Source: Balanoglossus misakiensis (taxonomy: Eukaryota > Animalia > Hemichordata). Taken from it: 64,000 nt of DNA. The notes under the pieces are model-generated. The model had not been told where the DNA came from and ran no database searches. It saw nothing but the letters and a program-made list of their open reading frames with translations. The translations under genes and the position numbers were made by a program. Location of the stretch: the NCBI GenBank assembly GCA_040954595.2, contig CM082598.2:7331097-7395096 (forward strand), given 5' to 3'. This document shows positions 111 through 34,994 of the stretch, one piece after another (the first letter of the stretch is position 1; the number at the start of each line of letters is the position of its first letter).

Positions 111-209
111 CTTGTTTTGTATGGTCACATCAGCTTTGTGTTCCAATAACAATCTGACACGGCCTTCATCACCAAACCCTGCTGCATTATGCAAAGGGGT
201 GTCTCCATT
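111..209 (-). CDS. Ankyrin cassette exon NGDTPLHNAAGFGDEGRVRLLLEHKADVTIQNK
   Basis: 99 bp, conserved splice flanks. Confidence 0.88.
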
Positions 210-32448: not shown

Positions 32449-34994
32449 ACACAAACCAGTACAAAAGTTTCATCATCTGTGTTTACAAATGACATACAGT
32501 GTCTCTGAAATGTTTCTAGTCTCACCCAGTGTGAAAATGGTGTCAGTCTACAGTATTTGTTTTGTTCAATGTGATTCAGCTAGTGCTATTACAGTAACAG
32601 CATCAGGGGTGCTATAGAAAGCGGTGTGGCAAACTGCATTGATGTATTTGCAAACAGGAAAATGCGATAGACCTTGAAAATGCCCCAGAATTAATTCCTG
32701 CCACAGAGAACTTGAAACACTGTAGTTAACCCCTAAAAATACCTAGAAAATATTGATTGAGGGCCCATTCAACATGGTGCAAACTGTTTGTAAGTGTATT
32801 TTACGTGGAAGAATTTACATTAGGAATATCTTGTTTGCACCAAGAATCCATTTTATTTCAACAAAATTCGTTATTTTAAAAAGATATTTCTATTAAAAGT
32901 TGTTACTTACCAAAAACCCAGGCTGTCTATCGTTATTTTGTTGCACGTAATTGAAATACAGTTTCACACAATTTTTTTTAAGTTCCTGCATGCACCGCAT
33001 GTGAAAAATAAAATATCAAACGCTAGCCCTGAGCGATGACTTTGTATAAAACATTGGTCAATACGAACACTTACCCATCCTGGGTATTTACCCCTTGCAT
33101 TGACATCATATCCATCATCTATCAGCGACTGAATCTTTGCAACATTACCACTCCATGCGGCATCGATGAGAACCTGTAACATTCAACAATCAACACTTCT
33201 TTTATCAAAATATTCTCAAAATGCAATCATAAACAGCAGTAATATAAAAGGAAAACATTGAAATCTTTATTAATGAAGAATTCTGAAGACGAAACATGAT
33301 CATGTCAATTTGAATAAAAAATGATGACATAGTGTTGTGAGAAAACAAAGACAACACAATTACTCTTCTCCAAGACAAAACAGCAAGATCTCCAAAGGGC
33401 AACAGGAAAACAGAAATACAAAACCGGTGGTGGCACTCTTAGGGAAAATAGACATTGCTTCTCCATAAAATTTCAAGACATATATCATTTCCAAGAATTT
33501 TCAATAACAAAAAGACAATTTGCACAATATGAGTGTTTCATCTAGATGGGTGGATGAGGGATTCACCCCCTATTGATGTGTTTGCACCCCCTGGCAATTT
33601 AATTTTCAAAGGGGGACCAGTGCCCTTTAAAATGTCACTCACATGTTGAAGATATTGCAGCCCTCCCCCCCCCCCCCTTGCCAGAGTGGAACCCCCTCAA
33701 ATATTCTGGCAAAAGGGGACATATACCCCCTGCTGATACCATCCTGAATGAAACACTGAATATAGAAGAAAATCAGACAAAAGCCCCCTCAGCTCCTAAT
33801 TTACAAAAACTGGGACAGATAATGCCATAATACAAATACAAAGCAAGACCGTTGTTTCTAATACAAAGAACTCTGGTTTAGTCACCCATCTGTATTTCAA
33901 ATCTCATTTGAACATTGTTGGAAGAAGTACCATTTTTTATCATTTTCAAAGACAGTGATGATAACTGGAAAGCATCCCCTTCTCTGTGATAGTTTTGGGA
34001 ACATGCATGGATAACTATTTTGCCTGAGTGTATCACCACCAGGGGAGGGTAGAAATTCACAATATTTTGACATTTGTATATTTTCTTTTTGTCATTCTGT
34101 ATACAAGTTCCCTATGTAGTTTTCCTTTAACAATTTCTGTAGTAGGTATGTGAGAAAACACAATGACCTTGTTGCAGACACAATTGGTGTTCAAAAATGT
34201 GGTTGATAAACAATTTGTTTCACTAACAATAATGACACGAATAATTTTCTATCATTGCTACAAAAACCAAGTGATCTTAGGTTAGCATGAAACTGAGTGC
34301 AGCTGAAACACCGTTCGCTTACAATCGACATTTGTGTCACCTTGAATGAACTCGCACAGGTCAGAAAGGTCATTGTCTGTTGATATGGTAATTGGTATCT
34401 ATGTGGAGTGAGGCACTGTAGAGATGCTTATCAGACTCTAGAATGATTGACTATACAGTAATACAGATATAGATTAAAAACTTTGGATTGTGATAATAAA
34501 ATATGACAAGCAGTTTATTACTAGTCAAAACTTTGTACGTCCAGCACAAACAACGAACATTTTTCATGATGCCATTGTTACAAGTTGTGTGCCCCTCTCA
34601 CAGTCTCTCGATCCACACAGACACCTCACTCAGAACTCACGGATTTATTGACTGACTGACTGATTCACCTTTCCACAGATGTTTGGACAATCATTTAATG
34701 TCTAGCAGAACAAGTCAGAGTTGTGGACTAATATTTTAGGGGTACAAAACGCGCATAGCACAAGGCTGGTTTGAGCTGACCTGCATTTGGAGCCCACATG
34801 AAAATGTGAGCACACATATATTGCATCAATTTGATAAAACGTTTCAGTCCACCCGAACCATGAATAATCTCAGCAGACGGACATTTAATCTGAAACACCT
34901 GTCGATAGATTATGGGCGTCCATGATGAGACAGACAGCGTAAATTCAGTTCAAAAGTCACTTACCCATGGGTTTTTATATTCCTGGGAAGCCAT
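111..34994 (-). CDS. Multi-exon ankyrin-repeat protein gene, 5' portion; 13 coding exons visible, continues beyond the left edge
   Basis: Manual splicing of GT-AG, phase-0 exons gives one open frame: MASQEYKNPW|VLIDAAWSG...|YGCTALHAAS...|then 10 xGxxPL(H/Y)xA(A/V)xx..EG.V.LLLEH.AD..(I/V)QN(K/E) repeats. Bases 1-60 match the intron sequence that precedes a cassette exon, implying more exons to the left. Confidence 0.88.
313..682 (-). mobile_element. Non-autonomous DNA element in the cassette intron (second copy ~930-1299), related to 62745-63373
   Basis: Absent from paralogous introns (aataaatctttccgcattgg at ~6108; similar at ~10627). Both ends match the reverse complement of the ends of 62745-63373. 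Confidence 0.7.
728..826 (-). CDS. Ankyrin cassette exon NGDTPLHNAAGFGDEGRVRLLLEHKADVTIQNK
   Basis: 99 bp, identical to exon 111-209. Confidence 0.88.
1345..1446 (-). CDS. Ankyrin cassette exon HGDTPLHYAAGSYGGEGSVRLLLEHNADVTIQNK (34 aa)
   Basis: 102 bp, conserved splice flanks. Confidence 0.88.
3960..4665. repeat. Minisatellite, ~88-bp unit with shorter ~50-bp variants (aaatgacgatttttcgactttgcgaaatttcaaaattt...catgggttatagc)
   Basis: Repeated directly about 8-9 times. It lies in an insertion (~3338-4690) unique to the first intron unit. Confidence 0.85.
5921..6022 (-). CDS. Ankyrin cassette exon DGDTPLHIAARRGGGEGSVRLLLEHEADVTIQNK (34 aa)
   Basis: 102 bp (one-codon insertion), 139-bp intron to the preceding cassette. 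Confidence 0.88.
6162..6257 (-). CDS. Ankyrin cassette exon DGDSPLHDAARFGEGGVKLLLEHEADVTVQNK (32 aa)
   Basis: 96 bp (one-codon deletion in the turn), conserved splice flanks. Confidence 0.88.
6827..8085. repeat. 157-bp tandem repeat, ~8 copies
   Basis: aaatttgagagatgtgaagattt...caaaggggaaat recurs at ~157-bp spacing. Confidence 0.92.
9059..9411. mobile_element. Palindromic MITE with TTAA target duplication (Kolobok-like); other copies at ~4690-5036, ~13980 (interrupted), ~28368 (partial) and 45780-46125
   Basis: TTAA|agggacaaagtctctctc...gagagagagatttgtccct|TTAA with inverted arms of ~130 bp. Confidence 0.75.
10443..10541 (-). CDS. Ankyrin cassette exon YGDTPLHEAVRSGDEGRVRLLLEHKADVTIQNK
   Basis: 99 bp, 140-bp intron to the preceding cassette. 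Confidence 0.88.
10682..10780 (-). CDS. Ankyrin cassette exon KGDTPLHRAAQYGDEGRVRLLLEHKADVTIQNE
   Basis: 99 bp, conserved splice flanks. Not in the ORF track. Confidence 0.88.
11589..12137 (-). mobile_element. Helentron-associated (HINE/DINE-like) non-autonomous element; paralog at ~26705-27242
   Basis: The reverse strand starts tttttagctc, has a GTCC-like microsatellite, internal tandem repeats and a short sub-terminal IR, and ends cttgtttt. It is absent at the paralogous A-run (~2197, ~8215). Confidence 0.65.
12349..13080. mobile_element. MITE with perfect 32-bp TIRs and ~7-bp TSD (P-element-like termini)
   Basis: catggaggtactagagagaaggagcgaggacg and its exact reverse complement at the other end. 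Flanks are gtaagag / ataagag; empty sites at ~2417 and ~27446. Confidence 0.85.
14052..15060. mobile_element. Non-autonomous element with a 5' long hairpin and sub-terminal IR (Crypton- or Helentron-like, unclassified)
   Basis: Hairpin 14055-14199 centred on cgaggcgaagccgag. ttatagttttgtcaatgccagtgaattt (~14206) is inverted at ~15028-15055. It interrupts the TTAA MITE. Confidence 0.6.
16872..17109. mobile_element. Truncated PIF/Harbinger-like MITE end occupying the place of an ankyrin exon (paralog ~20501-20746)
   Basis: Lies between donor-side flank caggttggtat and acceptor-side flank taatggcggaggagcatgag. It ends cgtgtgcggcagcct at a TAA. Confidence 0.55.
17246..17344 (-). CDS. Ankyrin cassette exon DGDTPLHFAAEYGDEGRVRLLLEHEADVTIQNK
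   Basis: 99 bp, same conserved splice flanks. Confidence 0.88.
17508..20401 (+). mobile_element. Ty3/Gypsy LTR retrotransposon copy A (5' LTR 17508-17750, 3'-truncated)
   Basis: TG...CA LTR, PBS tggcgacgag, gag with zinc knuckle, protease LVDSGA, RT (LCIDMR, FSKLDL), RNase H start (ADASPVG) and an integrase fragment. Multiple stops. Confidence 0.95.
17780..20400 (+). pseudogene. Gypsy gag-pol pseudogene, copy A
   Basis: ORF fragments 17903-18247, 18251-18529, 18593-19483 and 19694-20263, separated by stops and frameshifts. Confidence 0.9.
20887..20985 (-). CDS. Ankyrin cassette exon NGNTPLHYAAWFGDEGRVRLLLEHKADANIQNK
   Basis: 99 bp, same conserved splice flanks. Confidence 0.88.
21430..24620 (+). 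pseudogene. Gypsy gag-pol pseudogene, copy B
   Basis: Fragmented ORFs 21554-21898, 21977-22501, 22885-23220, 23388-23873 and 23979-24512. Confidence 0.9.
22646..22783. mobile_element. ~140-bp MITE inserted in Gypsy copy B only
   Basis: TIR gaccactacgcggatag / ctatccgcgaagtggtc with CAT duplicated. Copy A has uninterrupted aacagacatggctgacc. Confidence 0.8.
25524..26582. repeat. 157-bp tandem repeat, ~6 full copies plus one deleted copy
   Basis: Same unit as 6827-8085. Single copies occur at ~1918-2080 and ~11298-11465. Confidence 0.92.
29226..29324 (-). CDS. Ankyrin cassette exon DGDTPLYDAAGCAGEGCVRLLLEHKADVTIQNE
   Basis: 99 bp, cattacttacag acceptor, gtaaatacc donor. Confidence 0.85.
30146..30244 (-). 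CDS. Ankyrin exon, unique repeat YGCTALHAASFEGKLDAVRVLISHGADVNAKDE
   Basis: 99 bp, tttattccag acceptor, gtacgt donor, canonical GxTALH...HGADVNAKD. Not in the ORF track. Confidence 0.9.
30455..31690. mobile_element. Hairpin-headed non-autonomous element (same architecture as 14052-15060)
   Basis: Hairpin 30470-30532 centred on ctcgtcttcgactcg. tttatcatatgctca (~30580) is inverted at ~31673-31688. Confidence 0.55.
31764..31940. mobile_element. Tc1/mariner (pogo-type) MITE
   Basis: TA|cagtaaaacctgtc...gacaggttttactg. Confidence 0.7.
32398..32445. repeat. (GT)n microsatellite
   Basis: About 24 GT units. Confidence 0.97.
33075..33173 (-). CDS. Ankyrin exon, N-cap-like unique repeat VLIDAAWSGNVAKIQSLIDDGYDVNARGKYPGW
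   Basis: 99 bp, ttacag acceptor, gtaagt donor, ankyrin pattern AAxxG...L...G.DVN. Confidence 0.85.
33531..33758. mobile_element. Short MITE with agtgtttcat...atgaaacact termini (hAT-like, tentative)
   Basis: Terminal inverted repeat visible; TSD unclear. Confidence 0.45.
34965..34994 (-). CDS. First coding exon (MASQEYKNPW) of the ankyrin gene
   Basis: Start context ACAATGG, in-frame TAA 42 nt upstream, ends TGG|gtaagt in phase 0. A plausible acceptor (ccttttttttacag-like) lies at ~35132. Confidence 0.7.

Follow-up and report, generated by a model that had tools for sequence, protein, structure and literature searches.

We analysed a 64-kb stretch of the genome of the hemichordate Balanoglossus misakiensis (contig CM082598.2, positions 7,331,097 to 7,395,096; hereafter the window), whose minus strand carries, between 34994 and 111, the 5' part of a gene built from single ankyrin-repeat (ANK) exons. 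Exons were located by a six-frame motif scan combined with BLAST and profile searches of the window. Thirteen were found, namely an ATG exon, two unique ankyrin exons and ten paralogous cassettes, each cassette being one ankyrin repeat in one symmetric exon (Table 1). All lie where a first-pass annotation, made from the sequence alone, had placed a start exon, two unique repeats and at least ten phase-0 cassettes. Seven cassettes are 99 nucleotides (nt) long, one is 96 nt and two are 102 nt, and all junctions are in phase 0. The acceptor is CAG at every internal exon and the donor is GTAAAT at all cassettes. Joined, the 13 exons form one frame of 407 codons with zero stops, spanning introns of 139 to 8240 nt. 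The start exon itself probably begins at an acceptor near 35131. The array reaches the left edge of the window and probably continues beyond it, because the last 110 nt resemble (83%) the 140-nt intron that separates cassette 4 from cassette 5; an eleventh cassette is predicted about 30 nt past that edge. Neither a DNA profile nor a six-frame protein profile retrieved additional or inverted cassettes from the window, which also contains no detectable pseudo-exon of the cassette type and no second copy of exons 1–3. A sequencing artefact was ruled out, as the cassettes sit in differently diverged duplicated units carrying transposable element insertions.

The ten cassettes share a mean pairwise protein identity of 78% (64–100%). 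Those starting at 826 and 209 are identical, leaving nine distinct cassettes where the first-pass annotation had counted at least ten. That annotation had also described an almost invariant framework interrupted by hypervariable positions 1, 8, 11 and 12, and an almost invariant flanking intron. The framework is indeed 93% identical, although positions 14, 17, 25 and 33 vary too, and intron conservation is confined to some 14 nt next to the exon on either side, the 105-nt flanks being 62–100% alike.

Selection was assessed on the nine distinct cassettes over 33 codons, excluding cassette 10 as a duplicate of cassette 9 and omitting one codon of each 102-nt exon from the alignment. By pairwise counts, the proportion of replacement differences (pN) reached 0.50 at codons 1, 8, 11 and 12, sites chosen post hoc, compared with a near-flank intron divergence of 0.13–0.15; the framework had a pN of 0.064 and a synonymous proportion (pS) of 0.11. 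Site models, fitted with our own GY94 code (F3x4), favoured positive selection, with twice the log-likelihood difference (2dL) being 28.2 for M2a versus M1a (p=7.5e-7), 30.3 for M8 versus M7 (p=2.6e-7) and 28.1 for M8 versus M8a (p=1.2e-7), and with an omega of 9.7 at ~15% of sites. Naive empirical Bayes assigned posteriors of 0.96–1.0 to exactly codons 1, 8, 11 and 12, codon 17 being borderline. These codons are thus placed far above a dN/dS of 1, as the first-pass annotation had anticipated, and its residue lists for the four positions proved correct. The signal persisted when only the six indel-free cassettes were used (p=2.4e-4), when a star tree was imposed and when codons 11–14 were left out (p=2.7e-5). 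In simulations lacking positive selection, with the tree re-permuted for each codon, 0 of 126 replicates reached 25.1, the observed statistic under the same fit, and the maximum was 8.2. A mutation hot spot at the variable codons is unlikely, because all four bases occur in first place at codons 1 and 8, where synonymous third-base changes are absent.

We located these sites on the repeat by alignment to the published consensus of designed ankyrin repeat proteins (DARPins; PMC3308923, Table 2). Exon positions 1, 8, 11 and 12 correspond to ankyrin positions 3, 10, 13 and 14. The library described in that source randomised positions 2, 3, 5, 10, 13 and 14 as a single exposed surface, while the older scheme in its Table 2 randomised 2, 3, 5, 13, 14, 26 and 33; all four selected sites fall within the former set and three within the latter. 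Natural ankyrins, represented by 837 repeats from fetched proteins, tolerate variation at 17 positions, and the chance of drawing all four selected sites from these into the six face positions is 0.006. The tolerant positions off the face (exon positions 15, 16, 23, 24, 27 and 31) are invariant among the cassettes. The alignment therefore supports a clustering of the four sites on the predicted ankyrin binding face, as the first-pass annotation had claimed. The coincidence it had noted with DARPin randomised positions appears real but partial, because face positions 2 and 5 (exon positions 33 and 3) are almost fixed here. Like the DARPin libraries of PMC3308923, as its cited sections describe them, the array combines a fixed framework with variation at positions 3, 10, 13 and 14; unlike them, it has natural indels after helix 1 besides the nearly fixed positions, and its diversity would come from germline evolution. 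Taken together, the cassette exons are under diversifying selection at four binding-face residues.

Self-comparison of the window revealed nested duplications of differing age. A 0.6-kb duplication produced cassettes 9 and 10 (0.6% diverged, with 3 differences in 517 nt of upstream intron), a 3.6-kb tandem duplication (16761–20401 and 20398–24120) comprises cassettes 2 and 3 with a decayed long terminal repeat (LTR) element, and a 1.9-kb duplication yielded the pairs 10780–10541 and 6257–6022. Cassettes 2 and 3 differ at 12 of 99 exon nt versus 66 of 2120 flanking nt (p=1e-4), another sister pair at 15 of 96 versus 43 of 809 nt in its own introns (p=5e-4), and the remaining pair at 12 of 99 versus 74 of 948 (p=0.17), so that exon divergence significantly exceeds that of the introns in two of three pairs. 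Within the 12 nt of the four selected codons fall 5, 7 and 7 of the exon differences in the three pairs. Mantel tests among upstream flank, downstream flank, framework and variable codons showed no significant correlation (r −0.11 to 0.14), with little power at n=10, and adjacent sites were more compatible than distant ones (p=0.012), as expected under recombination. Exon similarity thus does not track flank similarity, a decoupling that suggests shuffling or conversion in the germline. Moreover, three slots have lost their cassette (Table 1). Cassette duplication and loss have been recent, and the pattern suggests that unequal crossover and conversion act in the germline with the cassette exon as their centre. 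The exon duplication and shuffling proposed by the first-pass annotation therefore find signs in the duplicated units and the decoupling of exons from flanks, to which the exon-less slots add loss.

These features also bear on the simplest explanation, in which ordinary tandem exon duplication under relaxed constraint lets residues vary wherever ankyrins tolerate it, with conversion mimicking selection. Ankyrin genes commonly have one-repeat exons, recombination is detectable in the array, and the framework dN/dS is fairly high (0.064/0.112). However, tolerant positions on the other face do not vary, replacement changes run about fourfold above silent and intron rates, and the null simulations never yielded the observed signal. 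We therefore regard this explanation as very improbable.

Table 1. Exons, emptied cassette slots and intronic elements of the array (window coordinates; minus-strand features start at their higher coordinate; P numbers are handles for database proteins)
Feature	Position	Strand	Evidence or remark
Start exon, coding part (ATG, 10 codons, phase-0 donor)	34965..34994	-	Residue-1 alignment with six Ptychodera flava proteins
Unique exon 2, N-capping ankyrin repeat, 99 nt	33075..33173	-	The N-termini of P0071 and P0222 match it
Unique exon 3, second ankyrin repeat, 99 nt	30146..30244	-	Clusters with six P. flava second repeats, support 98/90
Cassette 1, 99 nt	29226..29324	-	Position 7 is Y instead of the usual H
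Cassette 2, 99 nt	20887..20985	-	
Cassette 3, 99 nt	17246..17344	-	Sister unit of cassette 2
Cassette 4, 99 nt	10682..10780	-	
Cassette 5, 99 nt	10443..10541	-	Separated from cassette 4 by a 140-nt intron
Cassette 6, 96 nt	6162..6257	-	One codon fewer after helix 1
Cassette 7, 102 nt	5921..6022	-	One extra codon after helix 1; 139-nt intron after cassette 6
Cassette 8, 102 nt	1345..1446	-	Flanked upstream as 10780 and 6257 are, downstream as 826 is
Cassette 9, 99 nt	728..826	-	
Cassette 10, 99 nt	111..209	-	Identical to cassette 9
Start of a short intron (~140 nt)	1..110	-	83% similarity to the cassette 4–5 intron
Exon-less cassette slot	16884..17108	-	225-nt foreign piece replaces acceptor, exon and GT; donor flank resumes at 16877
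Second exon-less slot	20513..20745	-	91% like the first, copied within the 3.6-kb unit
Third lost cassette slot	16723..16783	-	Acceptor flank ends in AG, followed by non-exon sequence
Two decayed LTR-retrotransposon copies in introns	17735..24512	+	gag/PNMA, protease, reverse transcriptase and RNase H fragments

The piece that replaces the exon in two of the slots (225–233 nt) sits precisely between acceptor tract and donor flank and occurs nowhere else in the window; it is a candidate small mobile element or repair filler. The decayed LTR copies (17735–20263 and 21386–24512) were duplicated along with cassettes 2 and 3, the units being ~94% identical. A 157-bp tandem repeat occurs in two array introns (6827–8082, 8.0 copies; 25559–26580, 6.5 copies; 94–95% matches), possibly an extra substrate for unequal crossover. 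An 88-bp-based satellite array lies at 3962–4656, and this satellite and an element at 4689–5040 and 9053–9474 have very deep coverage in related DNA runs. The latter comprise three runs of a single sample and study, which share 0.04–0.19 of the window's words as contigs and include many divergent contigs; read depth in them was not used as copy number. The 27 kb upstream of the array (35300–62000) consist of interspersed repeats in a mosaic, some of them nearly perfect inverted copies (52276–53626 versus 57926–56579, 98.6%), and contain zero ankyrin, Roc or COR matches, two long open reading frames checked there having no Pfam match.

No Roc, COR or death domain match was detected in the 64 kb, and the identity of the gene was therefore approached through its relatives. 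In a profile search against 1.84 billion representatives, the number of repeats largely determined the ranking, and hits were re-ranked locally. This left one protein, P0071 from P. flava, whose first two N-terminal repeats match exons 2 and 3, and which has 19 ANK stretches followed by Roc, COR-A and COR-B. Querying with its Roc-COR part retrieved 18 proteins from P. flava, Glandiceps and Branchiostoma, and a search with an alignment of the N-cap added three further P. flava models. Among 352 fetched proteins, the best seven matches to exons 1–3 are all from P. flava (47–60% identity, 63–87 bits, the next scoring 55), and six of the seven align from residue 1. They represent six genes, of which three have Roc-COR, one ends just past the Roc P-loop and two are ANK-only models of 114 residues; four family members lie on one 23-Mb contig. 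A repeat tree (33 columns) grouped exon 3 with the second repeats of the P. flava proteins. Two supported branches of this tree enclose the cassettes, which are unresolved and include no foreign repeat; cassette monophyly is not demonstrated by it (2 changes; 1 change in 10% of bootstrap trees). The N-terminus is thus orthologous, by alignment, to P. flava members carrying Roc-COR.

Structural predictions characterise the C-terminal part of these relatives. The AlphaFold model of P0222 (pLDDT 82) matches LRRK1/2 and bacterial Roco structures. The model of the C-terminal domain of P0220 aligns to FADD (VIA Z 11.1, root-mean-square deviation 2.2, 91 aligned), the first eight rows being death domains, and death domains also occupy the top rows of a Foldseek search, with E > 0.07. 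No Pfam kinase was found in the P. flava relatives despite their "DAPK1-like" names. Because its first three exons match this P. flava ANK-Roc-COR-death family from residue 1, the gene probably reads ANK-Roc-COR-death, kinase-less. The first-pass annotation had listed ROC-COR and death among the possible C-terminal domains; both are seen in the relatives, while the C-terminus itself lies beyond the window. Orthology with DAPK1 was ruled out, as the ATG exon leads directly into ankyrins and aligns with residue 1 of kinase-less relatives.

The array could instead end differently, with a TIR, kinase or NACHT domain or no further domain at its C-terminus, or it could be a decoy, truncated, or a pseudogene remnant from this family. 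Families of this kind often shuffle their domains, the same search turned up proteins whose homogeneous ankyrin repeats are joined to TIR or kinase (P0077 and P0069), and two N-cap relatives are ANK-only models. Against this, all N-cap relatives longer than 114 residues continue into the Roc P-loop or Roc-COR, and 13 of 13 exons keep frame and splice sites despite 3–8% intron divergence among duplicated units. We consider such an ending decidedly unlikely.

ANK number ranges from 3 to ~19 among relatives, each gene having its own homogenised repeat type, and an amphioxus ANK-ROCO cluster with cores 90–99% identical differs in repeat number. Its repeats (27 distinct, from six of nine proteins, three having none) show entropy peaks at positions 11, 8, 1 and 3, then 12, 29 and 33. 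Two Branchiostoma proteins, P0355 and P0357, with Roc-COR cores 99.2% identical, have four versus six internal ANK repeats, the last two identical, which may reflect allelic repeat-number polymorphism or a difference between gene models. One related DNA run contains three different contigs over exon 2, of one sample and with non-identical sequence, suggesting that the family is probably multi-copy there. Hemichordate and amphioxus members are currently filed in databases as "DAPK1-like" (P. flava XP_070546714/5, XP_070546803, XP_070581720 and XP_070550397; Glandiceps talaboti XP_077996865; Branchiostoma KAI8514584 and its cluster). These models resemble the present gene in their N-cap (P. flava), homologous repeat framework and homogeneous repeats in variable number; they differ in being automatic annotations only, in their own homogenised repeat types and in lacking the DAPK1 kinase. 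P0246 and P0224, with consecutive P. flava accessions on one contig, are a truncated ANK-Roc model beside one without the N-cap, and the gene models of this cluster are probably fragmented.

Homogeneous, face-variable ANK arrays were also seen in Prymnesium parvum (P0069 and P0066), Lingula (P0077), Owenia (P0097) and Oscarella (P0236), with C-termini that are kinase, TIR, Roc or unassigned; the haptophyte P0069 has apparent read-through introns between repeats, a hint of a single repeat per exon. An exact-pattern scan of metagenome contigs gave four matches, all by chance and without an ankyrin exon, and one of viral contigs gave zero. A word search with one cassette returned 65 matches, generic ankyrins only, and a PDB sequence search with an alignment query gave only ankyrins among the 60 matches listed.

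Regarding the function of the product, the 407 residues predicted contain neither a signal peptide nor a membrane segment, hydropathy over 15 residues peaking at 0.89, and the product is therefore predicted to be intracellular. We propose that germline unequal crossover and conversion, using the conserved exon framework as homology, would add, delete and swap whole repeats without breaking the frame, while selection would favour new residues at ankyrin positions 3, 10, 13 and 14. Each gene copy or allele could then offer a different concave surface, and a repertoire would arise from the birth, death and conversion of genes and exons together with diversifying selection. By analogy with ROCO and death-domain biology, binding of a ligand may act as the switch for the Roc-COR GTPase and bring death domains together, which in turn may recruit a death-fold adaptor. 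Links between ROCO proteins and immune responses have been described, as has their action as nucleotide-regulated dimers, in the sections cited from PMC4104024. The array probably recognises foreign molecules.

Diversifying selection by itself leaves the ligand unnamed, and the same fast-evolving gene could bind a self protein, in gamete recognition, allorecognition or as a selfish element. Fungal ANK/WD NLRs with the same pattern function in allorecognition, according to the cited part of PMC4986451. However, 407 residues without a signal peptide or membrane segment do not fit a surface gamete or fusion receptor, and a family of several clustered genes with a death domain is in keeping with immunity or cell death. 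A self ligand is unlikely in our judgement.

Another possibility, and the boldest suggestion of the first-pass annotation, is a per-cell library, with cassettes skipped or chosen combinatorially in splicing, or rearranged somatically, to give many binders per gene. All cassettes are in phase 0 with intact splice sites, so that any subset stays in frame; their donor deviates from the consensus used by exons 1–2; and brown-algal ROCO genes alternatively splice their leucine-rich repeat (LRR) exons (PMC11378527, in the portion cited). Conversely, a crude test of Dscam-type docking-site pairing on one candidate intron showed no excess, as 17 of 30 and 12 of 30 shuffles were as low. P. flava and amphioxus models have many repeats joined in series, and the differences within the two isoform pairs seen in P. 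flava lie in the Roc region or are not known to involve ANK exons. Introns of 139 nt or more do not force mutually exclusive splicing. A per-cell library is, in our view, quite unlikely. A broader version, a natural DARPin repertoire in a deuterostome in which exons of multiple ANK-Roc-COR-death genes recombine between genes in addition to combinatorial skipping or somatic rearrangement, is rather unlikely; if true, every individual or immune cell would display a distinct collection of intracellular binders coupled to cell death.

We thus give somewhat better than even chances to the window holding the 5' end of a real gene for a likely kinase-less hemichordate ANK-Roc-COR-death protein, acting as an intracellular sensor of fast-changing foreign ligands with a germline repertoire. 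Several points weigh against it. The C-terminus falls outside the window, Roc-COR-death being attributed to the gene from its relatives, two of the six N-cap relatives are ANK-only models, and three of the seven matches built the query that fetched three others, leaving only P0071 independent. The death domain lacks support from sequence comparison (Pfam E 0.13 and 0.043; hhalign 0.2%), and the P0220 domain model has a pLDDT of 63 and a Z of 11, under the tool's caution level for helical bundles. The selection test is limited to 9 x 33 codons, our own implementation and naive empirical Bayes, under models that omit synonymous rate variation and multi-nucleotide mutation, and the Mantel tests, at n=10, have little power. 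The immune role is a prediction. Overall, the interpretation of the first-pass annotation, a diversified ankyrin-based receptor, is partly supported, and the locus has an ankyrin array, exon-shuffled and under positive selection, that likely belongs to a family of hemichordate sensors of the ANK-Roc-COR-death type.

Brown algae were already known to have positively selected ROCO receptors with one LRR per exon, and fungal NLRs to have selected ANK arrays. We found no published description of the present ANK-Roc-COR-death family in the open-access literature, although one may exist elsewhere. If the sensor reading is true, an ankyrin version with a probable death-domain output in invertebrate deuterostomes would represent the same design arisen again in animals, would provide hemichordates and amphioxus with a specific candidate for the diversified sensing of pathogens inside cells, and would bear on the roles of ROCO GTPases before LRRK2 and DAPK1. 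The ankyrin positions chosen by evolution (3, 10, 13 and 14, with loop indels) are useful for DARPin design. Expanded death-fold immune architectures with ankyrins are known from marine invertebrates generally (PMC8195603), and the passages cited from that source do not describe the present family.

Among known receptor systems, the lamprey variable lymphocyte receptors (VLRs) share repeat modules with a variable concave face (PMC3341825, in its cited part). However, the analogy that the first-pass annotation drew with them fails. VLRs are LRR proteins, secreted or anchored, and somatically assembled from cassettes outside an incomplete gene, whereas the present cassettes are spliceable exons in a single frame of a predicted intracellular protein. 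A VLR-like assembly was ruled out, as the exons are intact and in frame and the product has no hydrophobic signal.

The fungal NACHT-ANK NLRs, such as Podospora Pa_3_8560, are closer. In the cited sections of PMC4986451, they have homogenised ANK repeats with repeat-number polymorphism and positive selection on the inner helix and beta-hairpin. They differ in having a STAND NTPase followed by C-terminal repeats, while here N-terminal repeats precede the predicted Roc GTPase. The fungal criterion of high internal conservation is a repeat identity above 85%, which the cassettes do not reach at their 78% mean, and the gene starts with repeats rather than with an N-terminal NACHT or NB-ARC domain. 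Those sections do not describe the fungal repeats as single exons.

The LRR-ROCO genes of the brown algae Ectocarpus and Saccharina, as presented in the portions cited from PMC3341825 and PMC11378527, are candidate immune receptors with a single repeat per exon, repeat-number change, exon shuffling and four positively selected concave-face sites. Roc-COR lies downstream in them, as predicted for the present gene from its relatives. Of the Ectocarpus-type traits, the array has one repeat per symmetric exon and diversifying selection on the binding face, its repeats being of neither the LRR nor the tetratricopeptide type. As to the reshuffling trait, the array shows exon–flank decoupling (n=10) and three exon-less slots, but no inverted or pseudo-exon; inverted intronic exons, a feature of the algal genes, were not found in this window. 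The algal LRR exons are in phase 2 and 72 nt long, and alternative splicing is demonstrated for them (PMC11378527), whereas here the exons encode ankyrins, in phase 0 and 99 nt, in an animal gene with a probable death domain. The array works like the brown-algal LRR-ROCO genes and the fungal ANK NLRs and is a member of neither, because its repeats are ankyrin and not LRR, it has no N-terminal STAND domain and its repeat identity is 78%. If the proposed sensor role holds, it would be an ankyrin-based animal equivalent of the candidate immune receptors that brown algae build from shuffled exons.

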